Shown here: in pieces, positions 44,746 to 64,000 of the stretch
How the letters are laid out: each line of letters starts with the position of its first letter
Numbering within the stretch: the first letter of the stretch is position 1
Assembly (NCBI GenBank): GCA_964606485.1
Contig: CAZSGP010000006.1
Span: 62,925-126,924 of the forward strand
DNA: 64,000 nt
Source of the DNA: an uncultured Planctomycetia bacterium
GTDB taxonomy: Bacteria; Omnitrophota; Gorgyraeia; 2-02-FULL-51-18
Direction of reading: 5' to 3'
The notes under the pieces: generated by a model
Told to the model about the DNA's origin: nothing
The model's input: the letters and a program-made list of their open reading frames with translations, nothing else
Database searches by the model: none
Program-made: the position numbers and the translations under genes

Positions 44746-46800
44746 TCAAGCGCTAGCCGCTAACTGCTGATAAGCAAGAATGGACTGCCAGTACCCAAAA
44801 GCGCTCCTCAGATATTTTTTTAGATCATAATATCCATTCAACATTTCTTTCGGAGGGTTGCTTCCAAATACAAGCTTCAACACTTCCAGGCGATCCTCGG
44901 GCGTGCGAACTTGGCTCATCCAAAACTGAAAACCAGCCTCAAGACGCAGGGCTACTTTTTCTGCAGGCAGTGTTTTCACGCGGCTGTCCATCCCGGCGGC
45001 AATACAAAATGTGTTGTCGCCGAGTTTCTCAAGAATATCTATCGTGTCCCGATAGGGGCTCGCGGACTCGATGAGCTGGCCTTGAAACTTTGGCAGGGCC
45101 TCCAGAGAACTCTTGAGCGCTTCTTTTTGGGAATTCGGTCCCGGATCCAATAAAATAAGCCAATAAGCGCTTGGCATCCCAGAAACAAGCCGGGTAAGTT
45201 CGCGCGTTTCAAGAAGAGAGGCGTCTACGATGTTGACGCGACGCTGACCCGCTGCTTCAATCGGCAGCGGCACAAAAACCGGCCAATTGGAGAGGTTTTT
45301 CTCCAAATCCAAAATTTTCAACAATCTTGTGAGCCGCGCGCCCTTACTATCTTTATCGGTTTTCATTGCCCCGCGCGGTTTTGTTTCCCACGGGTAAGGA
45401 TTGGCGCCGAGTCGGTTTAACGTTTGTGCGGTCTTAAAAATTTTAAGTTTGGCATCTTCAATCCGCATCAATAATTCGCCGATTTTTTGCTCATTTTCCA
45501 TCTGTGATTCTAAGCTTTCATTGGGACTGCGCCAAACTCCCCCTGGAAATATCTTTTGAAATTGCTCCAAGCTCTGATCCAGACGCTCCAACTCCTTTAC
45601 CAAAAGATGCATCGATATAAAAGCTTGGTTGTAAGCCGCGGCAAACTCACTGCGCGCTATTTGAACGCGAAGCTCGGCCTCCTTGACATTGGCTTGGGCC
45701 AAAGCCAAATCCGCCTCAAGTGGCGCGCCAAACGGAACCTTCAGCTGAAACGTTTGTTCACGACTCACAGCGCCATAAGATTCGAGCGGCCGGCCGGCGA
45801 GCTCGTGAAAAAATGGCCCCGGCATGTCACTGGGTCTAGGATTGGTTCCCCAAAAAGCGCCTATATTGAGAGACGCTCTTTGAGTGCGCTCGGCAAACGA
45901 GTAAGCGTGTTGCGCGGCCTCATAATCCCTTTCGGCTGCTAAGATCGCGGGGTTTGCCGCGGCGGCTTCTTGAAACGCAATATTACCGCGCCTCAAGATC
46001 GCCACCGCATTGTTAAAGCTGGTTTCAAAATCCAAAGAAACACTTATCTCCTTTCCTTGATCCAGCGGTGAACCGGAAAGCAGCATGAGTATTTTAGACT
46101 CTAGTTCATTGGCTTCTATATGAAGTTGTAAGATGTCGGCCTGCAACGCGGGGATTTCTCTTTGCGCTTTTTGCCTCGCTTTCTGGTTTGCCGGAACAGC
46201 AAGTTGAGTCAGCCGTTTTAAGGAAACCTGCCGCCCTTCCAAAATCTTTATTTTTTGACGTGTCAAATTAAGTTCAATCAAAAGATCGGCCGCTTGGTTT
46301 TTTTGAGCTAAAACGGTTTCCTGTAAACGGTGAAAACTCGCCAAAACCAATTGGCTCTGAATAAGGCGCGCTTCTTCGTCGGCACCCAGCAGTTTTCGTA
46401 AAAGCGCTCCCGCAAAATCGGCAGCTAAGGACAAACCGTTACTCCCGTAGATCGCCGACAAATTAATAGCCCCACTTGGGGTCATATAGGATACCGCCGA
46501 ACTAACAACCGGTTTATTGCCCTCGAACCCCCCGGTTATTTCGATAGCCCATCCGGGCTCCAGTCTTCCCTGCGCGGCTTCCTGTCGCCAAACATCAAGT
46601 CCCGAAAGTTTGACGTTTAAATTTTTTTCAATGAACGGCCAAAGATCATCGACACTCAAAAGAATCTTTCCGGGTTTGAACTGCTCTGGTATTTGCCGCG
46701 CTGGCTTAGGCGAAATAGGCTCCCAAGGCGCGCTTGCGCAGGACGGAATTATTACAACCGTGGCAAGACTCAGCAGCGACGCCAGTGCAAATGGTTTGCG
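44746..46800 (-). other. NodT/TolC-like outer membrane factor module preceded by its own lipoprotein-type signal peptide (AHRKPFALASLLSLATVVIIPSC) inside the 1,833-aa ORF
   Basis: The positively charged n-region + hydrophobic core + Cys follow immediately after GDGARL (verified DNA at 46795-46830). Downstream coiled-coil repeats (LAQKNQAADLLIELNLTRQKI..., EAELRVQIARSEFAAAYNQAF...) are typical of OMF proteins, and NodT-family OMFs are N-terminally lipidated. Confidence 0.5.
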
Positions 46801-49800
46801 ATGAGCGAGTCTTGCGCCATCACCTTGAACCAGTCTTAGCAGTTCCGACGCTAGTTTCTTTTCTTCATCACTCCAATTTAGCGAAACAAGTGTTGCGTTT
46901 GGTAAAAAATTAACATAATTGGAAGAAAGTGTCATTTTTCCGTCTAGCCCAAGAGTTAAAAACTGCGTAAGATTTCCTGCAAATTCACCGTCTAACGCAG
47001 CAAAACCTGATTGCATTTCCCACTTCCAAATCCTCCTTAAATTTTTAAGTGCCGCTACCCGAATCGCTTTATTCGGGTCTTTTGCGGCAGCGATGAGGTA
47101 GTCCGAAGCGGAAATGACTTTTTTGCGACCAATAAAATTTATGGCTAACACACGGTAATTGGTTTCAATGCCCGAACTGAGGGCAAGCTCTCCTGCATAA
47201 GCAATATCCAGATACCATTTTTGCAATCTCGCATTCTTTCCTTTAGTGGCTTCATCCAATCGGAAGATATTCTGAATCACCCTCTCAAATTGTTTCGCGT
47301 CGCTCGCTTTGAGCGCTAAGGACGCCCGATCATCTTCTTTATCCCAATCTGAGATCACCGAAAGCGCGGGATCTTCTGGGTTAAATTTTTTTATCGGGAG
47401 ATTCCGTCCTTCTTCGATCCAGCTCCGCAAATTTATGGCAGTTTTTTCGGGACCGTCAGACTCGATCAAAACCATCGCGTATTGATGAAGAGCTCCTTTC
47501 ATGCCAACCGTAACGGTATACATGTCGTTCTGGGCGATCTTTCTTAAAATGGCGTTATTGACGCCGTCATGAAATTCCTTAGTCGAAAGTAATTGGATTA
47601 GGACTTGGCGGGCTTGCTGTTTCTGCTCTTCATAAGAACGGACAAGCGCCGGTGTTTTTTCGGGAGGTTGCCGTTTGAGAAGTTCGAGCAAGCCTTCCGT
47701 GTAACTTTCTGTGGGATTCGCTAAAGCCGACTGCAATACCGCCTTAAGGACGTAGTAATCTTTTTCATTTTCCAAGCCGTAACGAACAAATGATGTTGCG
47801 CGGTCAGCGCCGGCAATTTTTGGCAAAGCGAGATAAGCGGCGTATCGCGCAAAAAGACTCGGATCTTCCTGAGTCATTTGAGCAATTCGTATGGCGGCAT
47901 CCTTTCGAAGCGCTTCTGAAAAAATATTTGCTTGGTCCGCTAAAGCTGCCTTTCTTAAAGCTTCCGCGCTCATAAAGCGAACCAGATCATCCGGGTCGCT
48001 CAACCCGTATTGAATCAAAATCTGGATGTCAGCCTGGTTTGGTCCGATCATCACGAGCCACTGCGCAGCCAGGGCCCGCAAAATCCTCACGCCTTCCCTA
48101 TTCCAAAAACCATACGGGTCATTTCCGGAGTCAGGCCTCAGCATTTCATGCGCCGTAAGAATCCCTTCAGCTTTCCGGTTAAAAATAAGGTGCATCATTG
48201 CAACATAACGCTCCGCCCAAGGCCTTGATCTGTCTTTCAAGACCGCAAGCGCTGAGGGTTTAAAATCAGTGTCCTCGTAGGCCTCAATCTTACCGATAGC
48301 GCCAGAATTTTGGAGCTTCTCAAGTTCTTTGTAAGTCATTTCGTTGCATAGCGGACAAGAATCCATTTTGGATACGGGGCTCATGATTTGGATACGCGGA
48401 AGCTTTCCATAATCCTCGACCGGAATAATGTCCGCTGTTCTTGAAACGGCGGATCTGCCGTTTATGATGGATATCTCAGAGGTCATTCTTCTAGCAACCT
48501 GATACAAATCGTCTTCGGTCGGAACAGCAGAATCAAAATTTTTGGAAAGACTCGGCAGGCTAAGCTCGGATTTGGGAGGCGTTTGAGTTTCTTTTGCGCT
48601 TTGAATCGAACACGCGGGCAATGCCAAAATCAAGGCGCCGGCTGCCGCCATCAAGATACCGCCATCTGGCTGCCGCGTGACAAGTCTTGCGCCCAGAGGT
48701 GTATCCAATCGAACCCCATCGGGACTCATTGATACGAGCTGAATAGAAGAAACGGCTTCGGCGCCAGGAAGAAAACGACGCGTCAGCACTGTCGGCGCGC
48801 TGACAGTCGATGGGCCATGATTTTGAGAATAAATTTTTGAATTTCCGATAGGATTTATCTCAATAATTTTTTTTGAACTTTCATTTTGATCCAACAAACC
48901 CAAATACTGCTTCTTTAGCAGGTTTAAATCGTAACCGTTGAACACCGCGGCGCCAAACATCGCATAAAGCATTTCGGTCATACGGGCCTGAATCGCGCGG
49001 CGGCTCTGACTGTTGAGAGCCCGGAATTCATAGAGACGCTTGGAATCGAGTTTCTCAAGCTTTGGCCTTAAAACCGTGACATTCAATCCGCGAAGCCTCA
49101 AATCGTTCACAAGGCCCGCCGTATGAAACCCACCCACCACTAAAACGGCTTCCGGAGATTTGCGGCGGCGCATTTGGGCCAAAAGATTTTCCGCCATCGG
49201 CTTTTCTCGCGCCACAACACCTTCATAGAAACACAAACAGGCTTTGAGACGAGCTTGAAGCGACTTAAATTCGCTTTCCGAAAGAAAATGGTTTGGATTT
49301 TCAAGACTTGCTATTCTAAAAACATCTTCACGAGACGCTTCTAGCGCCATAACTCTTTCAATACGTCTAAGCCTGCGCACTGACTCGAGCGCACGAAGCT
49401 CATCTGTGGACGACGCTTCTAAAAGAAGCATCCGCTCCGACAGCCTTTGAATTTCATCGGCAACATCTTCCGCTAATACGCCCTCAGGGAGAATATTTTT
49501 TTCAAATAGAACACTAAACCTCGGCGCGCTAAAACCGGTTCCCTCAAGCTTATGCAGAGCTTGCTTCAAATCCTCAAAAAATTCTTTGCCGGTCGTTGTC
49601 TCAGGCCGGTCTAGGGCATTCATCCAGCGGATCACTCCCGAGGATAGCGTTTCATTTTCCATCGCACTAACCATTTTTGAGAATTTTTGAATTTGCGGGT
49701 TGAGCTGGACACCTTCTCGTTTTAAGCGCGCGTAGACTTTCCAGTTATGGCTATAAAGTCTAGGGTCTTCGACGCCCCGGATTTCAACTTCAGCCTCAGT

Positions 49801-50247
49801 CGTAATCGCCGCATATTCTGCGGCCGAAATTTTAGATTCGCGCAGCAGTTCAAAGGCCGCATTTTTTCGGATTTCCGTATCCGGAAATGATTTGAGAAAT
49901 GAAATTTCAGGTTCACCCGAAGCGCCTTCGATGCCAATCAGGCTTTTAGGTTCATTTTCAAGAATGGTTTGAACAATTTGAGCAATCTGAATCTGCCCCC
50001 CAAGGCTTGAATGGATATCTTCAATTAACCATACGCTCGGCTGATTCGGAGATTGGCTCGATAGATTCTTGCCGCCTACTTCCAATGAATATGCAAAATT
50101 TTCAATACAAAACACCGCTACTATAAGACTCGTAATAAATTTAAAATAAAATGGCTTACTAAACATAAATATCTCCAAAAAATAGCAGTATCCCTCGCTA
50201 ATGCGGGGATTAAAATGAACGGATTCCCGCGGTGGCGGGAATGACAA
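44746..50247 (-). CDS. Giant multidomain protein (1,833 aa by track; likely true ATG start about 50166, MFSKPFYFKF...). Domain order: signal peptide, TraB/GumN-like N-domain, internal lipoprotein-type signal peptide, HEAT-like repeats, second internal lipobox signal peptide, C-terminal NodT/TolC-like outer-membrane-factor module
   Basis: Shares N-terminal domain with the 1..14892 ORF (VWLIEDIH, VLVVGGFHTAGL). Contains G-A-R-L three times. The first 27 track codons (TTG start) read through GC-rich hairpins, an unlikely coding region. Confidence 0.8.
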   Translation of the reverse strand: MSFPPPRESVHFNPRISEGYCYFLEIFMFSKPFYFKFITSLIVAVFCIENFAYSLEVGGKNLSSQSPNQPSVWLIEDIHSSLGGQIQIAQIVQTILENEPKSLIGIEGASGEPEISFLKSFPDTEIRKNAAFELLRESKISAAEYAAITTEAEVEIRGVEDPRLYSHNWKVYARLKREGVQLNPQIQKFSKMVSAMENETLSSGVIRWMNALDRPETTTGKEFFEDLKQALHKLEGTGFSAPRFSVLFEKNILPEGVLAEDVADEIQRLSERMLLLEASSTDELRALESVRRLRRIERVMALEASREDVFRIASLENPNHFLSESEFKSLQARLKACLCFYEGVVAREKPMAENLLAQMRRRKSPEAVLVVGGFHTAGLVNDLRLRGLNVTVLRPKLEKLDSKRLYEFRALNSQSRRAIQARMTEMLYAMFGAAVFNGYDLNLLKKQYLGLLDQNESSKKIIEINPIGNSKIYSQNHGPSTVSAPTVLTRRFLPGAEAVSSIQLVSMSPDGVRLDTPLGARLVTRQPDGGILMAAAGALILALPACSIQSAKETQTPPKSELSLPSLSKNFDSAVPTEDDLYQVARRMTSEISIINGRSAVSRTADIIPVEDYGKLPRIQIMSPVSKMDSCPLCNEMTYKELEKLQNSGAIGKIEAYEDTDFKPSALAVLKDRSRPWAERYVAMMHLIFNRKAEGILTAHEMLRPDSGNDPYGFWNREGVRILRALAAQWLVMIGPNQADIQILIQYGLSDPDDLVRFMSAEALRKAALADQANIFSEALRKDAAIRIAQMTQEDPSLFARYAAYLALPKIAGADRATSFVRYGLENEKDYYVLKAVLQSALANPTESYTEGLLELLKRQPPEKTPALVRSYEEQKQQARQVLIQLLSTKEFHDGVNNAILRKIAQNDMYTVTVGMKGALHQYAMVLIESDGPEKTAINLRSWIEEGRNLPIKKFNPEDPALSVISDWDKEDDRASLALKASDAKQFERVIQNIFRLDEATKGKNARLQKWYLDIAYAGELALSSGIETNYRVLAINFIGRKKVISASDYLIAAAKDPNKAIRVAALKNLRRIWKWEMQSGFAALDGEFAGNLTQFLTLGLDGKMTLSSNYVNFLPNATLVSLNWSDEEKKLASELLRLVQGDGARLAHRKPFALASLLSLATVVIIPSCASAPWEPISPKPARQIPEQFKPGKILLSVDDLWPFIEKNLNVKLSGLDVWRQEAAQGRLEPGWAIEITGGFEGNKPVVSSAVSYMTPSGAINLSAIYGSNGLSLAADFAGALLRKLLGADEEARLIQSQLVLASFHRLQETVLAQKNQAADLLIELNLTRQKIKILEGRQVSLKRLTQLAVPANQKARQKAQREIPALQADILQLHIEANELESKILMLLSGSPLDQGKEISVSLDFETSFNNAVAILRRGNIAFQEAAAANPAILAAERDYEAAQHAYSFAERTQRASLNIGAFWGTNPRPSDMPGPFFHELAGRPLESYGAVSREQTFQLKVPFGAPLEADLALAQANVKEAELRVQIARSEFAAAYNQAFISMHLLVKELERLDQSLEQFQKIFPGGVWRSPNESLESQMENEQKIGELLMRIEDAKLKIFKTAQTLNRLGANPYPWETKPRGAMKTDKDSKGARLTRLLKILDLEKNLSNWPVFVPLPIEAAGQRRVNIVDASLLETRELTRLVSGMPSAYWLILLDPGPNSQKEALKSSLEALPKFQGQLIESASPYRDTIDILEKLGDNTFCIAAGMDSRVKTLPAEKVALRLEAGFQFWMSQVRTPEDRLEVLKLVFGSNPPKEMLNGYYDLKKYLRSAFGYWQSILAYQQLAASA
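50190..50242. repeat. Two adjacent GC-rich palindromic hairpins (ATCCCTCGC-TAAT-GCGGGGAT and ATTCCCGC-GGTG-GCGGGAAT) in the leader of giant ORF 2
   Basis: Perfect 8-bp stem at 50223-50242; imperfect 8/9-bp stem at 50190-50210; located between the stop of the small upstream ORF (50252) and the likely ATG of the giant ORF (about 50166). Confidence 0.55.
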
Positions 50248-50251
50248 TTTG

Positions 50252-50635
50252 TTATGAGTGGAGAATTATTTCAGGGGGGCGAAAAGTAGAGCGGGCTAAG
50301 TAAAAGGTATTACTCAGCGCATTGCTTTCCAGCAATTGCGTTTCCAAACTAGCTAAATTCTGAGGGGTGGCACGTAGCGTCCAATCACTTCCCCCGCCCG
50401 CAGAAGACTTGGTTTGACGTTCGGCTGCAGAAGCGTTATCCATGGAAACTTTTCCGGAATTTTCTTTCGAGACCTTCGTCTCGGGCGGGGCGTCCGGACT
50501 CATCATCGAGCACATGTGAAACGCGCGGTTTCCGTTACAAGCGGATTTTTCCTGCGAGGGCTTGATAAACGACCCTAGCGGTAAAACCCACAGAAGTACA
50601 GAGACCGCGCTAAAAAATCCAACAAATCGTTTCAC
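50252..50635 (-). CDS. Small secreted protein of unknown function (signal peptide, Ser/Ala-rich)
   Basis: 127-aa ORF with typical signal peptide MKRFVGFFSAVSVLLWVLPLGSF, co-directional and immediately upstream of giant ORF 2; no recognisable family. Confidence 0.4.
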   Translation of the reverse strand: MKRFVGFFSAVSVLLWVLPLGSFIKPSQEKSACNGNRAFHMCSMMSPDAPPETKVSKENSGKVSMDNASAAERQTKSSAGGGSDWTLRATPQNLASLETQLLESNALSNTFYLARSTFRPPEIILHS

Positions 50636-50644
50636 TAAAAATCC

Positions 50645-51118
50645 TTATTCTAAATACGCTCTCAGCATCCAGGCCATTTTTTCATGCTGTTCCATGATGC
50701 CGGTCAAAAAATCGCTGGTTCCCACATCTTCATGGGATTCAGCGCAGGCGACGAGATCTTTTCTTAAATTTTGCACAATCGCCTCGTGATCCGCTAAAAG
50801 CGCGCCGATCATTTTATTGGCCGCGGAGTAAGTTCCCGGAGTTTCCTTGAGCGTCGCGTGTTTTAAAAATTCTACCAGAGTCCCCAGCGATTTTTCACCA
50901 AGCGAGCGAACGCGCTCAGCGACTTCGTCAATAATTCCATCCAGCTCTTCGTACTGGGCTTCAAAAAATTTGTGGAGCTCAGAAAAATCCGTTCCCGTCA
51001 CATTCCAGTGAAAATTACGCGTTTTCGTGTACAGCACGTATTCGTCGGACAATGTGCGGTTTAAAATGGCGGCAACGGCCTTGCGGTCTTTGTCGGCTAT
51101 TCCAATGTTGGTTTTCAT
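50645..51118 (-). CDS. dps: Dps (DNA-binding ferritin-like protein)
   Basis: 157 aa; ferroxidase-site residues in YTKTRNFHWNV ... FFEAQYEELDGIIDEVAERV ... ESHED pattern typical of Dps. Confidence 0.8.
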   Translation of the reverse strand: MKTNIGIADKDRKAVAAILNRTLSDEYVLYTKTRNFHWNVTGTDFSELHKFFEAQYEELDGIIDEVAERVRSLGEKSLGTLVEFLKHATLKETPGTYSAANKMIGALLADHEAIVQNLRKDLVACAESHEDVGTSDFLTGIMEQHEKMAWMLRAYLE

Positions 51119-51180
51119 CTAATGCCCCTCCAGATATCTTCAGATACTATTGTATGCCCCCGAGCGTCTCGCTTCAAGCG

Positions 51181-52686
51181 TTAGAACCTTTGCTCCCACT
51201 CTAAAATCCACTTGAGCTGGCCATCCGGCGCATCATCACTCACGCCAAAAAGGTAACCTAAATTGTATTTTAAACTCTGAAATACTTTTCCGCTAATCAC
51301 GGGTCCGATAAAATCCTTACCCTTCTCGTCAAACTCTAGAAACACCTCGACTCCGGGCTCCAGGTATTCTTTCCACCGATAGCGAGAAGCCCACGAAAGC
51401 CCCGGCACCACTTCATCTTCGTCGCCAAACTCTGCTTCTAGATTCAAGTTAGCGGTATGGACAAAATTATCGATTTGTTTTTCGAGCAGAATCTTCATCT
51501 CAATCTCATCATTGGCTTCATCTTCTGCCGCAAATTCGTATTCCGCATATAAACCAGTATCCAGAGCCCATGCGCCGGGCTCCGAAAGTTGAAACCGGTT
51601 CTCCCATTTGACGTGCTCAAATTCGGTGTCTCCTTGAGGAACCTTCTCCAATTCACCGTAAATTTCAGAAAACCACCAATCGGTGAATCCGTAACCGATG
51701 CCAAAATTATGTTTTTGTTTGTCGTCTTTTTTAGAATTGTTATCAAAATCAACGCTAGCTTTATATTCCAGTTCCAGCTCCCCTTTTTCGACCAGTGGAG
51801 AATAAACTTGAGAAAATGACCATGCATTTGTTGAGCCGCTGATCAAACTCAGTGAAATTAAAGCAGTAGCTAGAACTTTCTTGCTCGAAACAGATTTTCC
51901 TAAATTTAAAAACAACATCATTCCTCCTATCGTTAATCCGTAAAATAAAACCTGCACCCCCATTGGTCGTTCCGTGTAGCCTAAAAGCGAATGAAGCACC
52001 TGGCCAAGCCATCCATTTTCAGCGACCAGTTTCGAGCTGTCCCACAAAGGCTCGCTCCAAAAGGAAACAAGACCGGCTGCGTTTAAAAAACCGATCGCCT
52101 GCGAAATCATTCCGGCCGCTAGAAAACTTAAAAGAATGCTCGTCGATGAAAAAATATGTTTGGGAGAAATTTTAATGAGCCCATAATAAATCAACACCCC
52201 TACAAGCGCACCCGCCCCAAAACCAATAGCTCCCCCAAGCAATAGCTCGGCCGCCTGGCCTCCGGAGGCGATCACGCCGTATGTAAAAAGAACGATTTCA
52301 GAGCCTTCTCTTAGGACTGCGAGTGCCACCACCACAGCGAGTGCCGACAATGTCTTCTCACCGGACTGAACGGCGAGGCCGACTGATTTAAAACGTTCGG
52401 TCATCTGACGGCCATGATGCTTCATCCAAATGACGGTCCAAATAATCAAAAGGGCCGCTAAAATGAGAATGCCTGCATTAAAAATTTCTTGTCCCATGCC
52501 CTCGGCGCATTCGGATATTTTTTGCGCGAACAGCGCAACTAAGCCTGAGAGTGCTGCTCCCGCCGCCAATCCTCCAAGCGCCCAGCGCTTCCGGCCTGAG
52601 ATTCCGCGGGTTGTCGCAAGCACCACGCCGACAATGAGTGCAATTTCCAACACTTCTCGAAAAAGGATAATCGCTATCTGAATCAC
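51181..52686 (-). CDS. FTR1/EfeU-family high-affinity iron permease fused to an about 220-aa C-terminal acidic, beta-rich domain of unknown family
   Basis: Two REGxE motifs (REVLEIALIVG, REGSEIVLF) in a 7-TM N-terminal half; C-terminal half (ELELEYKASVDFDNN ... KYNLGYLFGVSDDAPDGQLKWILEWEQRF) has alternating aromatic/polar beta-strand-like pattern. Confidence 0.65.
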   Translation of the reverse strand: MIQIAIILFREVLEIALIVGVVLATTRGISGRKRWALGGLAAGAALSGLVALFAQKISECAEGMGQEIFNAGILILAALLIIWTVIWMKHHGRQMTERFKSVGLAVQSGEKTLSALAVVVALAVLREGSEIVLFTYGVIASGGQAAELLLGGAIGFGAGALVGVLIYYGLIKISPKHIFSSTSILLSFLAAGMISQAIGFLNAAGLVSFWSEPLWDSSKLVAENGWLGQVLHSLLGYTERPMGVQVLFYGLTIGGMMLFLNLGKSVSSKKVLATALISLSLISGSTNAWSFSQVYSPLVEKGELELEYKASVDFDNNSKKDDKQKHNFGIGYGFTDWWFSEIYGELEKVPQGDTEFEHVKWENRFQLSEPGAWALDTGLYAEYEFAAEDEANDEIEMKILLEKQIDNFVHTANLNLEAEFGDEDEVVPGLSWASRYRWKEYLEPGVEVFLEFDEKGKDFIGPVISGKVFQSLKYNLGYLFGVSDDAPDGQLKWILEWEQRF

Positions 52687-53048
52687 GCGGCGCTCTCCTT
52701 AGCCACAATGGTGCCTACAGCTGTATCTTTGTGAAACTCCCCAAAATAAGTGTACCGGCCCGGTTGCAGTGGCCCCAAAAAAAGCGTTATCTTTGAATGC
52801 CCTGAAACCACCTTCTCGCGCCGCAGTTCGTAACTTTCGAACTCTTCGGGCGTGGCGTCCTGGTTATCAACCGTCAATTTAATTTTTTGATGAGCGGGCA
52901 CAGTGATCTCGGCGGGAGAAAACTGATGGTCCTTAATCGTGAGTGTATAGACCTCCTCCGCTTGAGCCAAACTAGAAAAACAAGTCATGAAAACCACGGC
53001 GTAAAATAACGCCGCTTCTTTTTTAGGGGTTACGTTTTGAACAATCAT
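52683..53048 (-). CDS. Periplasmic cupredoxin-like protein (FtrB/EfeO-N-like) partnered with FTR1 permease
   Basis: Signal peptide, about 95-aa beta-sandwich-like sequence with His in HQF...HQK and GEFH; overlaps the FTR1 start by 4 nt. Confidence 0.45.
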   Translation of the reverse strand: MIVQNVTPKKEAALFYAVVFMTCFSSLAQAEEVYTLTIKDHQFSPAEITVPAHQKIKLTVDNQDATPEEFESYELRREKVVSGHSKITLFLGPLQPGRYTYFGEFHKDTAVGTIVAKESAA

Positions 53049-53064
53049 TTCAGCTCCTTATTAA

Positions 53065-53114
53065 TGAGACTAATTCTCAATTGAGATCCTATCTTATTGA
53101 GACTTAGTCTCAAT
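53065..53114. promoter_or_regulatory. Array of related palindromes (TGAGACTAATTCTCA, TCTCAATTGAGA, ATTGAGAC-TTA-GTCTCAAT) upstream of the cupredoxin-FTR1 operon; candidate operator
   Basis: Perfect 8-bp-arm palindrome at 53096-53114 and two overlapping TGAGA/TCTCA palindromes at 53065-53086, 17-66 bp upstream of the start at 53048. Confidence 0.5.
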
Positions 53115-53130
53115 GTCAAATCAAATTTTT

Positions 53131-53721
53131 TTAGCGGTTCACCAACGTCCCGATCACTTCCTGGAGTCCCCGCCGAATCAGCATCACGCCGATAGTCGCT
53201 AAAAGAAGATTGGAAATTTTGGAAAGCGTTTGCGAGCCTGTGTCCCCTAAAAGTTTAGAGATCTCACCTGAAAAACTGATGATCACGCCGCAGAGAAGAA
53301 TATTCGAAACAATCGAAAAAACCGTCGGGTAAACTCCGAAAGAATTTAAAAGAACGAGAGAGGAGGTTAAAACCGCGGGGCCCACGATGAGGGGCACTGC
53401 AATGGGGATCACGCCAACCGTCTCCGGCGCTGTTTTGAGTGTTTTGGCAGACACCAGCAAATCGCGGATCGACACAATAAATAAGATAGCGCCGCCGGCA
53501 ATTAAAAAATCGCTAATGGTAATCCCGAGCCACTGCATCACAAACTTTCCAACCCATATAAATGAAAGGGAAACAATGAGTGCTGTCATCACCGAATGCC
53601 GAACCAGTGTTTGGCGCTGAGTCTTCCCCATTTTGCTCGTAAGCCCAATGAAAACCGGAAGCATGCCAAGCGCATCGACTGCGACGAAAATAGGAACAAA
53701 GGCGAGAAAAAAATCATTCAT
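53131..53721 (-). CDS. MarC-family integral membrane protein (UPF0056)
   Basis: 196 aa, 6 TM, conserved MarC N-terminal block FLAFVPIFVAVDALGMLPVFIGLT. Confidence 0.65.
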   Translation of the reverse strand: MNDFFLAFVPIFVAVDALGMLPVFIGLTSKMGKTQRQTLVRHSVMTALIVSLSFIWVGKFVMQWLGITISDFLIAGGAILFIVSIRDLLVSAKTLKTAPETVGVIPIAVPLIVGPAVLTSSLVLLNSFGVYPTVFSIVSNILLCGVIISFSGEISKLLGDTGSQTLSKISNLLLATIGVMLIRRGLQEVIGTLVNR

Positions 53722-54967
53722 AGACGGGTCGAATCTCCTGAACGCGTGGAGCCAAAAACAACATCACCGAAATCCTGCAAACACAGGATAACAAAAAGAG
53801 CGTTAAGAAGGAATAGCTGAATGCCGCCGGCAGGCGGTGAAACAACAAGCCTCCCAGTGCCGCTCCGCCTAAAACCGCGACACTGTTGACCACGTTGAAA
53901 TACGAAAAACAGCGAATGCGCTTTTCCGGACTCACCGCTTCCATGATGAAATTAGCCGTCAGCAAATTAAACCCACCCCAAAAGCCTCCCGCCACAATTT
54001 GTACAAAAAATAAATAGGCAATATGATGGGAAAATATCCATAGAAATGGGATGAGCGCAATCCCCCACCCCACGACTTTAAACGTCGTGATGTTTCCCCG
54101 CCGGTCTGCCATACGCCCCCAGAAACCCTGCGCCGCAAATCCAGACAAGGCCGCCGTCGAAACAACAATCATGTAATAGGCGTAGCTAAAGCCCAGGTCT
54201 TTGAGTAAGAAAACTGCGAGGAGCGGCCCTGAAATATTCACCGCAAAACTCATCATGGAGACCATGATGACGAACTTTGCAAAATTGCTCGTGCGAAATT
54301 GTTTGATAAACGCCCAAAAACTAAAATAGACGTCGTGCGAACTTTTCCGAAACGGCTCTTTCATTTTTAAGAGACAGGCCCATGCCGCGAAACGGCAAAC
54401 CATGGCGAATAAAAAGATCCAGGCGAAACCTTTGAGACTCAATTTTCCGTAGTGATTGAGCAGAAGACCGGCAATCACCGAAACCGTCACTGTGAAAAAT
54501 CCCTGAAGCCTGTTTCGGAACCCAAAATACCGCCCTCTTTTTTTAACGGGGATGTAGTCGGACATCAAGCTTTGCCAGGCCGGCACCGAAAAAGCACCAA
54601 TCGTAGTAAAAATCGTAGCCGCTGCAAGAAGCGCCCAAGGAGCCCAAGAAGAAAATCGAGTCTTTAAGACGAGTAAGGGTGCGGCCAAAATTAAAAGCCA
54701 GGAAGCCGCATGAAAGAAAACAGAAATATTAATGAGTTTTGTCCGATGCCCCATGACTTGGGTAACGCGAGCCGATTGGGTTTGGATAATCGTGGCCACG
54801 AGCATGGGAATGGCCGCTAAAAAAGCAACTTGAGAGGGTGAGGCGCCGAGCGCAATGCCGTAAGGGATGAGATATGACTCACTCACCCCCACCATCATGG
54901 CGGTGAAAAGCCCGTCCGCTAAAGAATAGCGAAGACTGCGGCGAATAGATCCCTTTTCAAACTTCAT
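53714..54967 (-). CDS. MFS transporter
   Basis: 417 aa, 12 predicted TM helices, MFS motif-A-like GRMADRRG loop. Confidence 0.65.
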   Translation of the reverse strand: MKFEKGSIRRSLRYSLADGLFTAMMVGVSESYLIPYGIALGASPSQVAFLAAIPMLVATIIQTQSARVTQVMGHRTKLINISVFFHAASWLLILAAPLLVLKTRFSSWAPWALLAAATIFTTIGAFSVPAWQSLMSDYIPVKKRGRYFGFRNRLQGFFTVTVSVIAGLLLNHYGKLSLKGFAWIFLFAMVCRFAAWACLLKMKEPFRKSSHDVYFSFWAFIKQFRTSNFAKFVIMVSMMSFAVNISGPLLAVFLLKDLGFSYAYYMIVVSTAALSGFAAQGFWGRMADRRGNITTFKVVGWGIALIPFLWIFSHHIAYLFFVQIVAGGFWGGFNLLTANFIMEAVSPEKRIRCFSYFNVVNSVAVLGGAALGGLLFHRLPAAFSYSFLTLFLLSCVCRISVMLFLAPRVQEIRPVYE

Positions 54968-54982
54968 AAACAGAGCAAGAAC

Positions 54983-55501
54983 CTAGGACGCGAGAATTTT
55001 AGCGACGTCGTCCTGCATTTTCTTCGACACGGAGTGATATTCTCCGACAATCGTGCCATCAGACTTCACAAGCAAACTCGTGGGAATACCAACGATTCCG
55101 TAGGCAGAAGCTGCAGATTCATCGCTGTCCAAAAGCACTGGGTACGTCATATTCATTTTCTTCGCAAAATTGGAAACTTTTTTATGGGATTCCCCGATAT
55201 CAACGCCGAGAATCGTAAAACCGTTGGCGCCATATTGTTCTTGAAGCTTGATCAGATCGGGAATTTCTTCGCGGCAAGGCGGGCACCACGTGGCCCAAAA
55301 GTTCACCACCACAGCTTTATGCTTGGCGAGCTCCGCCTTCAGGTTAACTTCATTCCCGTTTAAATCCCTAAGACTGAAATATTTATCTTCCGTGAGCTTA
55401 TTGCCGGCTGTTTCGGTGTAAGTGGCATTGGCTCCCCCACAACCAAAACTGCAAATCATGAGCGAAAATAAAAATAAACCCGTCAAAATTCGGTGTCTCA
55501 T
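54983..55501 (-). CDS. Thiol:disulfide oxidoreductase lipoprotein, TlpA/ResA-like thioredoxin fold
   Basis: Lipobox MICSFGC, WATWCPPCREE active site. Confidence 0.8.
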   Translation of the reverse strand: MRHRILTGLFLFSLMICSFGCGGANATYTETAGNKLTEDKYFSLRDLNGNEVNLKAELAKHKAVVVNFWATWCPPCREEIPDLIKLQEQYGANGFTILGVDIGESHKKVSNFAKKMNMTYPVLLDSDESAASAYGIVGIPTSLLVKSDGTIVGEYHSVSKKMQDDVAKILAS

Positions 55502-56202
55502 ACCAACAATCCCCCCATCTTGATCAAGAAATATTCAGCTGCAAAAATTAAAATCCATCCAAAAAATTTTTTTATGCGTTCAAGCCAAAGACCTGACTTC
55601 GGCATTGATGCCAAAAGCCCGGTGAACGTGCCAAGAACGAGCATCAAAAATCCGACGCCATATCCAAACACAAATAAAAGTGAAAAGCCGTACAACAAAT
55701 TTTGCTTCGTTCCGACGTAGACGAGAATCGACGCAAGCACGGGCGCCGTGCAAGGACCGACGATGAGGCCTGACACCGCTCCCACTAAAAAAACACTCAA
55801 ATAACCCTTGCCGCGACCCGGAGCGCTGTTGCCCACGAGTGAAATTTGAGGCAAATTAAAAACACCAAGCATCGAAAGACCTAAAAGAAGACAAATATTC
55901 GCGACAAATAAATACGACCAGGGGCTCGAACCCACTTGTCCAAAAAATTTTCCCGTTAGTGAGGCGACTGCTCCCAGAACGGCGTAGGTAATGGCCATGC
56001 CAAGCACATAGACTAAAGAGAGCGTGAAACCTTTCCAGCGTGACCCTGCACTGCGAGCGCCGATGAATCCAAGTGTGAGCGGAATCACCGGATACACACA
56101 GGGCGTAAAACTCACCAAGATCCCTGCTAAAAATACCGCCGGGAACGCGAGTACTGGGTTACTCGCGATGATGTGTTCAATGTTTGAGAAAAGAGTTTCC
56201 AT
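55498..56202 (-). CDS. ccdA: Cytochrome c biogenesis protein CcdA (DsbD transmembrane-domain family)
   Basis: FTPCVYPVIPL and second TM Cys (VGPCTAPV) motifs, 234 aa; overlaps tlpA-like start. Confidence 0.8.
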   Translation of the reverse strand: METLFSNIEHIIASNPVLAFPAVFLAGILVSFTPCVYPVIPLTLGFIGARSAGSRWKGFTLSLVYVLGMAITYAVLGAVASLTGKFFGQVGSSPWSYLFVANICLLLGLSMLGVFNLPQISLVGNSAPGRGKGYLSVFLVGAVSGLIVGPCTAPVLASILVYVGTKQNLLYGFSLLFVFGYGVGFLMLVLGTFTGLLASMPKSGLWLERIKKFFGWILIFAAEYFLIKMGGLLV

Positions 56203-57251
56203 TATTTTTTAAGCTTCACCGATCTTAGTTGTCCGCACGCCGCCTGAATGTCCTGCCCCTTTGAAAAGCGCACCGTCGTTTTAATTCCAGAGTCTTGCAA
56301 AATTTGCTGAAACTGCACCACATCCGGGTAGGACGGTGCCACGTGCGAAAATTCTGGGATGGGGTTATAAGGAATCAAATTCACCTTGCACAACATCCCC
56401 TTCAGAAGCTTGCACAAATCCCGCGCTTCTTTAGGGCCGGCGTTGATTCCTTTGATTAAAATGTACTCAAATGTGATGGCGCGCTTCGTTTTTTTAGCGT
56501 AGCGACGGCAGACATCCATCAGATCCTCAACCGGATAAGCAGCGTTCACCGGCATCACCGCATCGCGTACACTGTTCGTGGCCCCATGAAGTGACACCGA
56601 AAGCTCGACTTGAAGCTCTTCCTTCATTAGCGCTTCAATCTTTGGAACCACTCCGCAAGTCGAAATCGTAATTTTCCGCGCGCCAAAATTAAGCCCGCTT
56701 TTGGAATTTAAAATCCGGATCGTCTTTAAAACCTCGACGTAATTATCGAACGGCTCACCAATTCCCATAAACACGATGTTGTTGATTTTTTTAGAGGGCG
56801 ATGCGTCGCGCGCGAGTAGCACCTGCGCCAAAATTTCACCTGATTTTAAATTGCGGAAAAATCCGTCCTGGCCGCTCGCGCAAAATGCGCAGTGAAACTT
56901 GCAACCTACTTGGGAGGATATGCACGCGGTTGTGCGCCATGCCGTCGTGTACCGGTCTTTGTTGACCATGCAAACAGTTTCCACGTAATCCTTGTCATTT
57001 AATTTTAAAAGTAGTTTTTGGCTTTTGTCCTCTGCTGATTTTTGCCGCTCAACCACTTCCGGAAAGGCAATTGTAAAATTTTCCTTAAGTTTACTGCGCA
57101 ATTCCACCGAAAGATTCGTCATTTTATCAAAATCATAAACGCCTTTTTCGAACACCCAGTTTAAGATCTGATCGGCGCGGTAGCCTTCAATGCCCGCTTC
57201 GGTGAATTTTTTCTTGAGTTCAGTGGGAACAAAATTAAGAATCGAGATCAT
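56202..57251 (-). CDS. rlmN: Radical SAM 23S rRNA/tRNA adenine C2-methyltransferase RlmN
   Basis: CISSQVGCKFHCAFCASG radical-SAM cluster motif, GIGEPFDNY, C-terminal conserved Cys (AACGQL). Confidence 0.8.
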   Translation of the reverse strand: MISILNFVPTELKKKFTEAGIEGYRADQILNWVFEKGVYDFDKMTNLSVELRSKLKENFTIAFPEVVERQKSAEDKSQKLLLKLNDKDYVETVCMVNKDRYTTAWRTTACISSQVGCKFHCAFCASGQDGFFRNLKSGEILAQVLLARDASPSKKINNIVFMGIGEPFDNYVEVLKTIRILNSKSGLNFGARKITISTCGVVPKIEALMKEELQVELSVSLHGATNSVRDAVMPVNAAYPVEDLMDVCRRYAKKTKRAITFEYILIKGINAGPKEARDLCKLLKGMLCKVNLIPYNPIPEFSHVAPSYPDVVQFQQILQDSGIKTTVRFSKGQDIQAACGQLRSVKLKK

Positions 57252-57254
57252 TTT

Positions 57255-57881
57255 TTAAGCCGCTGGACAGCGGTCCGCCAAGTGAGACGCATCGTTTATA
57301 AACACAAGTCGAGTGCGTTTGTCTTTTTCTTCAATCATCGTGAGACTCGTGTTATCAATCTGTAAATTTAAAAGCAAATTATCAAAATCGGCCTTCAGCC
57401 AATTGGACAAGAGCGCCGTAATCACGCCGCCGTGCGTCACAATCAAAACATTTTTTCCGTGGTTTGATTTTAAAATCTGATTCACGCGCTTTGTCACACG
57501 GTTTCTAAAATTTTTTAAGAGCTCGCCCTTCGGAATTTTAATCGAAGAGGGTTTTTTGAGCCATTTCTGATACCCCAGGTCATACAACCGGTCGACTTCC
57601 TCGGGGGTTTTGCCTTCCCAAATACCCAAATGAATTTCCCGGATCAGCGGGTCTTTGATCACCGGAATTTTTTTGTGGTGACTAATCGCAAGTGTCGTGG
57701 AGTACGCGCGGCCAAGATCGCTCGAATAAATTTTATCGATTTTAATTTTTTTAAGACGTAAGCCTAACTGCTTCGCTTGAAACTCGCCCTTTTTCGTCAA
57801 ATGCGAATCATGATGCCCTTGAATGCGCCCGAGATCGTTGTAGGCGGATTCAGCGTGGCGAACAATTATTAAACGTGTCAT
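57255..57881 (-). CDS. Histidine phosphatase family protein (phosphoglycerate mutase-like)
   Basis: LIIVRHAESAYN and LIVTHGGVI motifs. Confidence 0.7.
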   Translation of the reverse strand: MTRLIIVRHAESAYNDLGRIQGHHDSHLTKKGEFQAKQLGLRLKKIKIDKIYSSDLGRAYSTTLAISHHKKIPVIKDPLIREIHLGIWEGKTPEEVDRLYDLGYQKWLKKPSSIKIPKGELLKNFRNRVTKRVNQILKSNHGKNVLIVTHGGVITALLSNWLKADFDNLLLNLQIDNTSLTMIEEKDKRTRLVFINDASHLADRCPAA

Positions 57882-57883
57882 AT

Positions 57884-58396
57884 TTATCCTAAAAACTCTT
57901 TATATTCTTTTGCCAATGCCGAATAGCGCTTTGCCCAAGGTTTATGGCCGGCCACGTCTTTTGGAGACAACGTGCGCACCACTTTTCCGGGAACTCCGAG
58001 CACTAATGAATAGGGCGGGATCTTGGCGTTTTCGAGCACCACTGCCCCCGCGCCTATCAAACTAAATTTTCCGATCACGGCACCACTTAAAATCCGCGCG
58101 CCAATCCCGATCAGCACTCCATCCCCCACTGTGCAAGCGTGAACCGTGGCTTGATGCCCGCAAATAATTCCTTTTCCGAGAGCGCAGGGCTTGTCGGTGT
58201 CGACATGAACGACAGCGTTGTCCTGGATATTCGTGCCCTCGCCCACGCTGATTTTGTTAATGTCTCCGCGAAGCACCGCGCCAAACCAGACACTCACGTC
58301 TTTGGCGAGTGTTACATTGCCAACGACGTGCGCCCCCGGCGCTACAAAAACAGATGGATGAATTTTTGGGCTTTTGCCCTTAAAAGGAAAAATCAT
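57884..58396 (-). CDS. Gamma-carbonic-anhydrase-like / hexapeptide-repeat (LbH) protein
   Basis: 170 aa with left-handed beta-helix hexapeptide repeats and His ligands typical of the CaiE/PaaY/gamma-CA family. Confidence 0.75.
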   Translation of the reverse strand: MIFPFKGKSPKIHPSVFVAPGAHVVGNVTLAKDVSVWFGAVLRGDINKISVGEGTNIQDNAVVHVDTDKPCALGKGIICGHQATVHACTVGDGVLIGIGARILSGAVIGKFSLIGAGAVVLENAKIPPYSLVLGVPGKVVRTLSPKDVAGHKPWAKRYSALAKEYKEFLG

Positions 58397-58436
58397 AAGA
58401 CGACATTATACCACCCTAAACTAAGGTATTGTCGGA

Positions 58437-61400
58437 TTAGGCGGAGGCGAGCACGTGGCGCTCGGCAAGCCGCGCAGCCGAAACGGCTTCGTCGACGCTC
58501 ACCTTAAAGGCTGCCTTGAGAACGATGGTTTCTATCTGTGAGAGTTCCAGACCTGCCTTAACGGCGATCCTATAAAGAAATTGATTATCAATAAACGTAT
58601 TCGCGCTAATAACTTTCCACGCACTAATCGTCGAGTCACTAATACGACCTTCTGAATTATGCACCGCAATGGCCAACTGATCCAAAGAGTAGTAAGCAAA
58701 TACCTGCCCTTCCGAAAGCTTCTCAACTGGCAGGTACAAAACCTTTGAATTTGGATCAGGGTGAGTTATTTTTTGAAAATTATTTGTAAAACAAATCTGG
58801 TCTTCGAAGGCTTTGTCGCCCGGGTTTAAAATTTCACCCACCGCTTTCTTGAAAATTGGGATCTTATCCCCTCGGACACCAAAGCTTTCGGCATCCTCTA
58901 GCATTTTGTTTTTGTATGTTGCCAAATAAGCGTAGGCCCTAGCCCTAAGAACTTCATCGGACGAATTCAATACCGCATTTAAAGGAAGTTTGGGGGAGCT
59001 GAGTTTAATCCGAAGCAAGGCCAGTGCTCTTAATTCAAGATTCGTTTCCAAAGTTCGATCATTGTCCGCTCTTAGCGCATCCAAATCAAAACCGATGGTT
59101 AATGGTTTTGTAAGTGTCTCAGGAACTCTTTGTCCCAACGCATTTGACACTGCATTTTCCATAGTTTGCAGAGCAAAATCCGCCTGACGCGCGGACAAAA
59201 CCACGAGTGAGCTAGGTCGTTTCTTTGCCGGATCTGCAAGTTCAATGGGCAAAGCTTTAGGATCGCTTTGAATGCGGATTTGAATCTGATTTCCCTTTTC
59301 TTCAAAAACCACAACAGATGTTTTTTCTTTTAAGGTGACCGCAACGGCTTTACCAGCCACCAAATCTCCAAAATGCTCAAATACCCGCTGACTAAAACCG
59401 GACACGAGTTCTGGATAAGCCAATTCCGCCGCCAACTTATTGACGTACCGCTGAAGATCGCCCGGGCTAAAAGGCTTTGCTAGCGCTACTGTGTTAATGC
59501 CAAGAGCTGATTTAAATTCAGGGTTGCTTGTATCCCCTGAAATAAAAATAACAGGTACTCGCGAAGAAGTTTGAATGCCCATCGCCCCTTGGCGCAAAAC
59601 ACCGATGACGTCCAAACCCATGTAAATCTTACCTTCGATTTTTTTAGAATCCCTCGTATTGTTATCGGTAATTATTAGATCGAATGGCTCTGAATTTTTA
59701 AGGGCCTCTAGCGCTTCGGATGAATGTGCAACCTCTACGATATCGCCATCTTTCACGCCCATTCTCACAAGAGTCATCCTCATAATCCTTCGAAGAGGCT
59801 CTTCATCATCAACAATTAGCACTTTTTTAAACGTAACAGCAGGTTTTGGCGCGCTTTCTATCGGCCGCTCAACAGAGGGCATTGCCGGCACCACCGGCGA
59901 AAATGGATTGCTCGAATTTTTTCTTTCAAGATTTCTAAGCGCCGAGGAAGCCTTGATAGCCGAGCTCACAATCGCTTGATAAGATTGTTGGCTCAGAACC
60001 TCAGCGGGCATCATTGAATACTCAAGAAAACCGAATCCCGTTAGGGCACTCGCCAGAAGGGCTAATTGAATCTCGGCGTCTCGAACACCGGAAAGCTTCT
60101 GTATTAATTGTTCATTCTGCACGAGAGCACGTCTGTACAAAAGAAGCAGCGGCCCTACAACATCTCTTTGATTTTCATAGGTCTCGCCCATCTCAAGTTT
60201 CCCAGAGAGAATGCTCATTTCTCCGATAATTTCACTTAACTGTGCCAGTGGATTGTCAAAATCAAGCACCAAAAACTTTCTTCCTTCCGCTTCACCAAAC
60301 GGATAATCAATACCAGAATTCAAATAAAACGTTAGGCTGTGAGAAATGGATTGAATGGCGCTAAACTCCCTAAGGAGAAGTTCCCGGTCATCAGCACTAA
60401 GAGGTTTCTCCGCAATCAAGGCGAGACAATTCATCGCTTTATTGGGAAGCTCGTATTTTCCAGATCCCCCCCTATTCCTTCTCAAAGTTTCGACAATCAC
60501 TCTTTCGCTCAGATTGACTTGAAGATCCGCCTCCCTTCCAATGTTTTTATGTATAAGATTCGATAACTCTCCCAGCTGGAACTGAGCCTCCTCCATTACT
60601 GAATCATAATTTCCTCCGCGATTTTGAGCAAAAGCAAGAATGTGAATGGGTGTGTCCAATTGGGAGACGATATGACTGAGCCTCTCCGAGAACTCTTTCA
60701 AAAACACCGATTTTCTAGCCTCCTCATGACTAAAACCCTCAGGCTTCTTGAACGAATAAGTCGTTTCCGAAAGCCGCGCGGCGGATTGAATGGACTGAAT
60801 TTTTTTTCGATTCGTTTCCTGGTACTGCCTCCAAATAAACCCGGCAAGCCTGTTTATTTTTGGATCAATTTCTTGTGCCGATATAAAAGTTTGTGGAACA
60901 GTTTTTTGGGGAGCATTCATGGCTGTCAAAATTAATGCGATGAGCGTTTGAGTGTCTAAGTCTTTAATGTCTTCGTAGCGCCGGTATGTCCAATCGATCC
61001 GGCTTATTTGATTGTCAAAATATAGAACAAAAGGAACACTCAGGCTCTCCATTTGGCTAACCCACATATCAGTGGCCTTCGAATCTGTTTGGCTTGAGTT
61101 TATGTTGCCGATGATTTTTTCATGAAGCCGTTTCATTTGACCATAGATATCAATATCGGTTTTTTCAAGAACCCTTAAAAAGTCAGCTGGGTTTTCATTC
61201 ATATCGGCCGACAGAATCGCAATCATAGCCCGCTTGACGCGGAGGTTAAACTGAGTTTTCAGAGCTCGTTCATCAGTAAGCGGTTTTGAAATCTCAGAAA
61301 GCCGCGCGGCGCTTACCACTTTTGACTCTGCAAGAATTCCCATCTCCACTAAGAGCTTGGGATTGCTCTCTTCTCCGACTCCTCTGGAATAGCGCTGTAC

Positions 61401-64000: not shown

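Follow-up and report, generated by a model that had tools for sequence, protein, structure and literature searches.

Organization of the locus

The DNA analyzed here (64,000 nucleotides of contig CAZSGP010000006.1, assembly GCA_964606485.1, from an uncultured bacterium of the Omnitrophota; hereafter the window) is ordinary bacterial chromosome (45-51% GC) and carries four very long, stop-free open reading frames (ORFs) on the minus strand. Three of these, designated O1, O2 and O3, are polyprotein-like and form the subject of this study; the fourth is an unrelated exoprotein-type ORF described below. All coordinates refer to the window and, unless stated otherwise, to its minus strand. O1 (1..14904) begins with GTG at 14904 and comprises the first 4968 amino acids (aa) of a 5725-aa ORF corresponding to P0003, with the remaining 757 aa, including the conserved C-terminal tail, lying outside the window. 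O2 (44746..50166) is complete and corresponds to the 1806-aa database protein P0004; its start is most likely the ATG at 50166 rather than a TTG at 50247. O3 (58437..>64000) has its N-terminus beyond the right edge of the window.

An earlier note on this DNA had described these three as giant ORFs opening with the same block of about 400 aa, and all three are indeed very long minus-strand ORFs without stops. The shared opening block is real for O1 and O2, where it forms an N-terminal domain of about 450 aa (the head) that aligns by BLASTP with an E-value of 2e-18 and 20% identity over 424 aa; for O3, only the last ~95 aa of the domain are in the window. This fragment (VGGYH...) aligns with the O1 head (E 2e-18, 31% identity). 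The blocks IxDxH, E-G, G-x-ED, FY..R and GGFH are invariant between the O1 and O2 heads. The N-termini of O1 and O2 are both of the Sec type, but, contrary to what had been proposed, they are not nearly identical. Downstream of the head the ORFs have different contents, as the note had claimed and as Pfam and NCBIfam scans confirmed: SecA_DEAD, P-loop_SecA, His_Phos_1, Glucosamine_iso, M50 and HTH_8 in O1, HEAT and OEP (Pfam) in O2, and HTH_3 and Response_reg (Pfam) in O3. The [GA]ARL motif that separates these contents, a conserved tail and the size of the family, all described below, had been overlooked.

A recurrent motif separates complete modules

In O1-O3, which together span 8623 aa, the tetrapeptide [GA]ARL is found 20 times, against 0.8 occurrences expected from shuffling and a maximum of five in 2000 shuffles. 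By comparison, it occurs once in the 11596 aa of the 37 other ORFs in the window, and not at all in the fourth giant ORF. The single outside occurrence (EGAARLIDP, residue 203 of a tetratricopeptide-repeat protein at 41532..42341) is probably a chance match, as judged from the residue that follows it, which is Ile and not small. All 20 sites in O1-O3 are followed by A, S, G, T, V or P, giving the form [S/A]-[G/A]-A-R-L plus a small residue in this genome. The codons used for the motif vary from site to site (GGC/GGT/GGA/GGG, GCG/GCA, CGN/AGR and CTN/TTR), which indicates selection on the peptide and not on the DNA, and rules out a DNA-level repeat as the source of the motif. No Pfam match in O1-O3 spans one of these junctions. 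Three sites are directly followed by lipoprotein-type signal peptides (O1 residue 622, ...LLLAAC; O2 residue 496, ...LALPAC; O2 residue 1121, ...VIIPSC) and two further sites in the window by membrane segments.

O2 displays this arrangement in its simplest form. A Sec-type signal peptide read from the sequence (MFSKPFYFKFITSLIVAVFCIENFAYS, 50086..50166) precedes the head, whose hydrolase core of predicted TIKI/ChaN/EreA/TraB fold spans residues 44-385 (49012..50037). The first GARL (residues 492-495; 48682..48693) is followed by the lipoprotein-type signal peptide VTRQPDGGILMAAAGALILALPAC, which opens a HEAT-repeat lipoprotein-like module (46819..48681; HEAT_2 at residues 696-758). The second GARL (residues 1117-1120; 46807..46818) is likewise followed by a lipoprotein-type signal peptide, AHRKPFALASLLSLATVVIIPSC, at the start of a 488-aa outer-membrane-factor-like lipoprotein (45343..46806; OEP at residues 1398-1539). 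After the third GARL (residues 1609-1612; 45331..45342) comes a C-terminal module of 194 aa (44749..45330) that ends in ...LAASA and is not recognizable as the canonical tail.

In O1, the signal-peptide region (14785..14904) and the head (about 13495-14727, with IxDAH at 14707-14721 and GGFH at 13699-13710) are followed by a GARL at 13369..13380, the first of 11 [GA]ARL junctions in the part of O1 within the window. The others lie at 13042-13053, 12142-12153, 9259-9270, 8461-8472, 5689-5700, 4210-4221, 3514-3525 (AARL), 3031-3042, 2404-2415 and 880-891, and there is a GGRL variant at 13456-13467. Junctions stand on either side of a 961-aa module combining HTH_8 with a SecA-like DEAD motor (9271..12141), of a histidine phosphatase module (His_Phos_1, 8473..9258; 262 aa between the two motifs, in a module of about 265 aa) and of a module with a NagB/Pgl-like C-terminal half (892..2403). 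The NagB-like match stops at residue 4664, 4 aa short of the GARL that begins at residue 4668 (both numbered from 14892). Directly after that junction lies a small M50 (site-2-protease-like) membrane protein (1..879), with HEVAH about 25 aa past the GARL.

O3 enters the window with the C-terminal fragment of its head (FIVGGYHAPSLQKLF...YEELLLG, 63729..63998) and has a GARL junction at 63666..63677 (in-window residues 108-111). In total, its in-window part carries six [GA]ARL sites and one GARF, the remainder being at 63714-63725 (GARF), 63564-63575, 62373-62384, 61299-61310 (AARL), 60771-60782 (AARL) and 58467-58478 (AARL, 13 aa from the C-terminus). HTH_3 (63210-63374) and Response_reg (59442-59822) were matched by Pfam, and the last 313 aa (58440..59378) form a conserved, Rossmann-like tail module ending in ...AARLAERHVLASA. 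Closely spaced variants of the motif (IARF/GARF, GGRL, GARL) occur right after the head in both O1 (13381..13494) and O3 (63564..63728); cutting at all of them would free very short peptides of 16-34 aa.

The head is a candidate hydrolase of the TIKI superfamily

The head had been proposed to be TraB/TIKI-like and possibly proteolytic. This holds at the level of the superfamily, with the positions of two histidines and two acidic residues retained, but not at the level of the TraB/GumN family, to whose profile the head has no match. No Pfam or NCBIfam family matched the head at threshold in scans of the whole ORFs (E<=0.01). Among the profiles of interest, PF01963 (TraB_PrgY_gumN) gave no match in scans of the heads and PF04187 (ChaN, Tiki superfamily) matched nine of 35 heads below threshold (best E 9e-5; E 0.12 for the O2 head), so that none of PF01963, PF04187 or PF05139 (erythromycin esterase) matched significantly. 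A profile search of PDB sequences with the head likewise returned nothing significant, only faint EF-hand-like noise in a helical insert. The absence of any curated profile at threshold places the head in a new family within the superfamily, and not within TraB/GumN. An AlphaFold model of O2 residues 1-430, built from 35 sequences (predicted local distance difference test, pLDDT, 80; predicted template modeling score 0.77), has the alpha/beta TIKI fold with the parallel beta-sheet core that marks members of the superfamily. The head thus belongs to TIKI/TraB/ChaN/EreA at the fold level only.

The candidate catalytic residues of O2 are D50 (50017-50019), H52 (50011-50013), E80 (49927-49929), R320 and H348 (49123-49125). 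In the model, D50-x-H52 comes after strand 1 and E80 after strand 2, and a core strand precedes the GGFH that contains H348. The head alignment shows no variation at H52, E80, R320 or H348, and D50 is conserved in at least 90% of sequences; D50, H52 and H348 were partly selected for in assembling the alignment set, and E80 and R320 were not. RRSP, a site-specific endopeptidase of the TIKI family, uses E3900, H3902, E3930 and H4030 for catalysis (PMC6254334). The 28 residues from H52 to E80 in the head equal the spacing from H3902 to E3930 in RRSP. From its D-x-H / E / H set, the head is a candidate catalytically intact hydrolase.

A hydrophobic segment opens 124 of 141 heads, with a flank charge of +4.0 on its N-side and -0.7 on its C-side and an AxA-like c-region, and is by these features a predicted Sec signal peptide. 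In GARL-type heads (P0016, P0023, P0048, P0063 and O1), the signal-peptide region follows the pattern F-[LI]-x-[EQ]-[EQ]-x-[AS]-[FYW]-A and then [AN]-P-[DE]-L-K-P. This is more conservation than export would need and may point to a specific recognition element where the chain begins.

Relatives of the head in other genomes

The earlier note had viewed the three ORFs as one head recombined with different cargo and had suggested looking for the head elsewhere. The core of that idea stands, but instead of three local, shuffled paralogs the head defines a family of thousands built on a head-cargo-tail plan. A word-index search found only two relatives. Full HMMER searching, from a profile built on four sequences, gave 9392 cluster representatives at E<=1e-3, 5890 of them at E<=1e-30. 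In all of the best 150 matches listed, the head lies within the first ~600 residues of proteins 470-6899 aa long. When these 150 are combined with the two word-index relatives, 44 of the 152 proteins are free-standing heads of at most 700 aa and 87 exceed 1500 aa. The downstream context of the free-standing heads was uninformative. One relative of the O1 head (P0045) is labeled Candidatus Omnitrophota, and a cluster member of one relative is annotated as a 'carbon storage regulator' after one of its modules. More than 477 genomic loci were confirmed (one genome per species), several per genome, in metagenome-assembled genomes of Omnitrophota, Elusimicrobia, Firestonebacteria, FCPU426, Goldiibacteriota and Auribacterota. 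In the 80 loci that were kept, the head opens ORFs of 520 to >3900 aa (in most cases 1300 to >3900 aa), many of which run off the contig.

Each giant relative was searched in an unbiased way for enriched words of four or five residues, of which up to two positions could be residue classes. In about half of 70 giants, the strongest recurrent motif was G-A-R-[LM]-[AGS]. For example, P0023 has 27 sites in 6899 aa (log10 p -48), P0063 has 15 GARLA and P0048 has 16 sites. Other lineages have motifs of their own, including SGAAP (13 in P0032), RTSP (nine in P0050), R[AGS]SAA, D[AGS]QGR, ASLGMT and RSE[LMIVF]R, which is followed by a small residue and occurs six times in locus L059, four times in L029 and three times in L024. 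Within one genome (JACROU01), all three polyprotein-like ORFs share A[AS]SLG. Across 381 GARL-type sites, only [SA]-G-A-R-L-A carries information, and the sequence on either side is unconserved. In 97% of 378 sites, G[AS]R[LM] is followed by A, S, G, T, V, P or C, compared with a background of 38%.

The motifs also fall where whole proteins would begin and end. The first junction lies 62-145 aa past GGFH in 33 of 36 GARL-type giants, which is the point at which free-standing heads end, and the median module in these giants is 235 aa. P0067 and P0077 have junctions on both sides of every Pfam domain, and the spans so delimited match the size of the free-standing proteins (Adk 254, PEPCK 596, CsrA 94, REC 138 and aldose epimerase 339 aa). 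Homologs of O1 and O3 modules were found in other polyprotein-like ORFs at other positions, and are bounded by junctions there too. Of the hydrophobic segments, 26% begin within 25 aa past a junction, compared with 9% for randomly placed junctions (2.8-fold). Signal peptides as a general rule after junctions were rejected by a strict test (13 of 381 sites versus 11 controls). As a separate observation, the cargo of the GARL-type P0067 (4731 aa) is of a core housekeeping kind, comprising adenylate kinase, ATP-dependent phosphoenolpyruvate carboxykinase, class V fructose-1,6-bisphosphatase and CsrA.

A conserved tail

Nearly all complete giants have [AS]-A at the C-terminus. A jackhmmer search started from one tail identified a C-terminal module of about 300 aa in 44 of 88 giants, with matches to O1 (E 2e-34) and O3 (E 3e-31); the same search found no canonical tail in O2. 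The structural model of the tail is of moderate quality (pLDDT 67) and gave generic Rossmann-like matches only. No conserved polar residues were found in the tail, which argues that it is not an enzyme. A junction-like [GA]ARLA stands exactly 13 residues from the C-terminus in O1, O3 and five relatives, and in other relatives x-R/Q-L/M occupies the same positions. The last 13 residues of O3 (58440..58478, AARLAERHVLASA) and of O1 (ASRLASQMADRAA, the C-terminus of P0003) thus repeat the junction motif. A cut after the Leu would free a C-terminal peptide of nine residues, and relatives end in similar 9-mers (AAKMAEQAA and AVRMLEQAA).

Proposed processing of the chains and alternative explanations

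The interpretation that we favor, with a probability of roughly 0.6, is that O1-O3 are processed polyproteins belonging to a very large, unannotated head-cargo-tail family of Omnitrophota and related candidate phyla. A polyprotein is the simplest account of whole proteins joined in a single frame, with a motif between them that differs lineage by lineage. Each chain would consist of a signal peptide, a hydrolase head of ~450 aa, an array of complete and unrelated proteins (enzymes, regulators, lipoproteins and membrane proteins) and, usually, a non-enzymatic tail of ~300 aa ending in Ala. The pattern of the motif makes it quite probable that the junctions are processing sites. The chain would be cut there, most likely after the Leu, and each product would then start with an Ala/Ser/Gly-type residue; N-termini of this type are stabilizing under the bacterial N-end rule. 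The released modules would become separate proteins, and those of the envelope would rely on the signal peptide or lipobox found immediately past their junction.

The prime candidate for the protease would be the head itself, because it is the only enzyme always found with the motif and because its superfamily includes site-specific endopeptidases (Tiki, RRSP). To the claim that the head actually cuts the junctions we give somewhat less than even odds. Just as tentative is a broader model for Omnitrophota and their kin, in which a substantial share of their everyday proteins, among them core enzymes (adenylate kinase, PEP carboxykinase), global regulators (CsrA) and envelope lipoproteins, would be produced as polyproteins in the manner of viruses. 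A dedicated N-terminal TIKI-fold protease would cut these at sites particular to each lineage, and the tail, with its site-mimicking C-terminal helix, would act as a terminator or regulator.

Several points weigh against processed polyproteins cut by their own heads. The support for cleavage comes throughout from reasoning on sequences. The head has a Sec-type signal peptide and most of the cargo is cytoplasmic. Modules with signal peptides of their own imply that cutting takes place in the cytoplasm, a compartment in which an exported head would stay unfolded. As a solution to this topology, a stop-transfer segment behind the head was considered and discarded, being present in only 17 of 101 giants; the other 84 have no transmembrane segment after the head. 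The O2 head is 20% identical to that of O1 and at most 27% identical to any other, yet O2 uses the GARL motif. Divergent heads with the same motif imply that the motif follows the genome and not the lineage of the head, which a single trans-acting protease would explain equally well or better. Free-standing heads, which would have no substrate in their own chain, make up about 30% of the family, and in Elusimicrobia, Firestonebacteria and Goldiibacteriota loci a strong recurrent motif was absent or too weak. Lastly, some GARL-like strings lie inside the conserved tail fold, so that not every occurrence need be a junction.

These points bear most directly on an alternative that keeps the polyproteins but assigns their cutting to a separate cytoplasmic protease with its gene elsewhere in the genome, such as a C39-type double-glycine peptidase or some other site-specific enzyme, leaving the head as an exported TIKI-type enzyme that always comes first and may have a leader, translation-entry or periplasmic role. 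The Sec signal peptide on the head, when the cargo needs release in the cytoplasm, speaks for such an enzyme, as do the existence of free-standing heads and the use of one motif by divergent heads of one genome, seen both in O1/O2 and in the three JACROU01 ORFs with A[AS]SLG. In addition, other giant proteins of Omnitrophota often contain C39 domains, and the motif-initial G-A and the natural [AS]-A C-termini resemble the double-glycine-type sites for which C39 peptidases are specific. We nevertheless consider this explanation unlikely, though well worth keeping in mind: the only protease found in O1-O3 or elsewhere in the window is the small M50, the head is the sole enzyme universally linked to motif-bearing ORFs and has its catalytic residues intact in all of them, and C39 peptidases use an upstream leader helix, whereas no position upstream of the motif here exceeds 0.1 bit and conservation is found on the downstream side of G-A.

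The modules might instead never be separated, the ORFs being true multi-enzyme 'beads on a string' that arose by gene fusion, with the motif as a linker, docking or modification site, for instance one recognized by a chaperone, a scaffold or the tail. Very long multi-enzyme proteins have been reported as a class in Omnitrophota, and a tail that has motif-like strings and no catalytic residues could mean that the motif docks with the tail. This is improbable given that a five-residue motif kept exactly within a lineage, with unconserved flanks and a small next residue, looks like a protease site and not like a linker; that lipoprotein signal peptides 500-1100 aa into a chain with an exported head would need cutting to reach the right topology; and that CsrA, CheY-like receivers, HTH proteins and oligomeric enzymes are ill-suited to permanent tethering. 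Separation during translation, by 2A-like skipping of a peptide bond or by re-initiation at the motif, would account for the exact recurrence of a short motif at module boundaries with no need of a cytoplasmic protease, but we think it highly improbable: 2A sequences need about 18 conserved upstream residues and the upstream of this motif is unconserved, there are no start codons or ribosome-binding sites after the junctions, and the motif codons vary. We know of no 2A-like skipping mechanism in bacteria. An artifact (mis-assembly, a wrong genetic code or spurious ORFs) is raised only because ORFs of 5-15 kb are rare; nothing was found in its favor and we give it almost no weight, since the neighboring genes are normal-sized with ordinary stops and full-length Pfam matches (pst operon, RlmN, MTHFR), P0003 and P0004 are held independently in public collections, and thousands of relatives share the same architecture.

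If processing does occur, these ORFs would represent a polyprotein strategy for housekeeping proteins in cellular organisms and hence a previously unrecognized mode of gene expression. Thousands of 'hypothetical giant proteins' would then resolve into ordinary proteins, with consequences for annotation, for the metabolic capacity ascribed to candidate phyla, for the study of proteases (a new TIKI-family specificity) and for synthetic 'fuse-and-cleave' expression. The lineage-specific motif around whole proteins would provide a concrete cutting grammar, testable by computation and by experiment, for the giant genes of Omnitrophota, whose possible cleavage is a question raised in the literature.

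Comparison with known systems

By analogy, the nearest functional counterpart is the MARTX toxin. The CPD protease of MARTX toxins cuts after Leu and before small residues, much like GARL followed by A/S/G. As in these ORFs, a giant MARTX polypeptide carries a modular, strain-variable array of unrelated domains, the linkers between which are cut by a built-in protease (PMC6315884). In O1-O3, the modular array and the linker motif are seen, and release of the modules is what they suggest. The two systems also differ in several respects. Pfam and NCBIfam scans found no RTX/hemolysin-type repeats, C80 protease or type I secretion signal in O1-O3; the candidate protease is instead an N-terminal TIKI-fold domain. 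The cargo is of the housekeeping type (Adk, PEPCK, CsrA, lipoproteins and regulators) and not host-directed effectors, and there are several copies per genome in free-living candidate phyla.

Viral polyproteins, such as those processed by picornavirus 3C, alphavirus nsP2 and coronavirus 3CL, combine one ORF, a short virus-specific consensus with a small P1' residue, a protease in the chain and stoichiometric products. The ORFs described here likewise hold complete, unrelated proteins in one frame, separated by a recurrent specific site. They differ in lying on a cellular chromosome alongside normal operons, in the unrelated fold of the candidate protease, in the signal peptide on the first product and in the conserved non-enzymatic tail.

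With the TIKI superfamily (Tiki1/2, RRSP and TraB/PrgY, together with ChaN and EreA/B/C), which includes site-specific endopeptidases (PMC6254334), the head shares the two-His/two-acid positions, the 28-residue spacing and a predicted exported localization. It differs in a helical insertion of ~200 aa between strands and in having Asp for the first Glu, and no member of the superfamily is known to stand at the head of, or to process, a polyprotein.

Giant ORFs have been reported from the same phyla in two preprints (West-Roberts et al. 2023, and a 2026 'complete-genome view'). The long ORFs described there are likewise covered by numerous unrelated Pfam families, among which are SecA-DEAD, response regulators, methyltransferases and sugar-metabolism enzymes; class 1 of the 2026 preprint, 'multi-enzyme metabolic clusters', is similar in having many Pfam families tile one chain, none of them dominant, as is the case in O1 with six families and in P0067 with Adk, PEPCK, FBPase and CsrA. 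The giants described there are at least 10,000 aa long, compared with 1.8-5.7 kaa here. The first preprint suspects cleavage, names C39 or S8 domains as possible proteases and states that the cleavage points are unknown. Text searches, which did not cover the junction motif or the tail, returned no mention of a TraB-like head or a polyprotein in either preprint, nor of cleavage in that of 2026. Full-text literature searches on GARL, on bacterial polyproteins, and on polyproteins with Omnitrophota or Elusimicrobia returned nothing relevant. No prior description of these head-cargo-tail ORFs was found in these searches.

Other genes in the window

The remaining genes of the window are mostly of normal size with full-length family matches. 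They include a pst phosphate-transport operon with PhoU and a PhoR-like kinase, QueC, PanE, RlmN, MTHFR, a DsbD-type protein, peroxiredoxin, ferritin, FTR1, ZnuA with an ABC-3 permease, and MutY. The fourth giant ORF (32222..37615, 1797 aa) has neither the head nor the GARL motif and hence provides an internal negative control. It begins with a TPS secretion domain of the two-partner-secretion exoprotein type. Behind this domain lie a long beta-helix-like stretch rich in Gly, Thr and Asn, a low-complexity acidic linker and, at the C-terminus, a beta-propeller of the YNCE/lactonase type.

Just downstream of O3 lies a free-standing histidine phosphatase (57255..57881, 208 aa; His_Phos_1 E 3.5e-57). 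The His_Phos_1 module of O1 (8473..9258) is more divergent than this copy and has an N-terminal extension of ~56 aa. On the plus strand, two membrane-lipid enzymes are unusually fused in a single ORF of 378 aa (29518..30654), namely LGT (prolipoprotein diacylglyceryl transferase, residues 2-209) and phosphatidylserine decarboxylase (residues 207-374).

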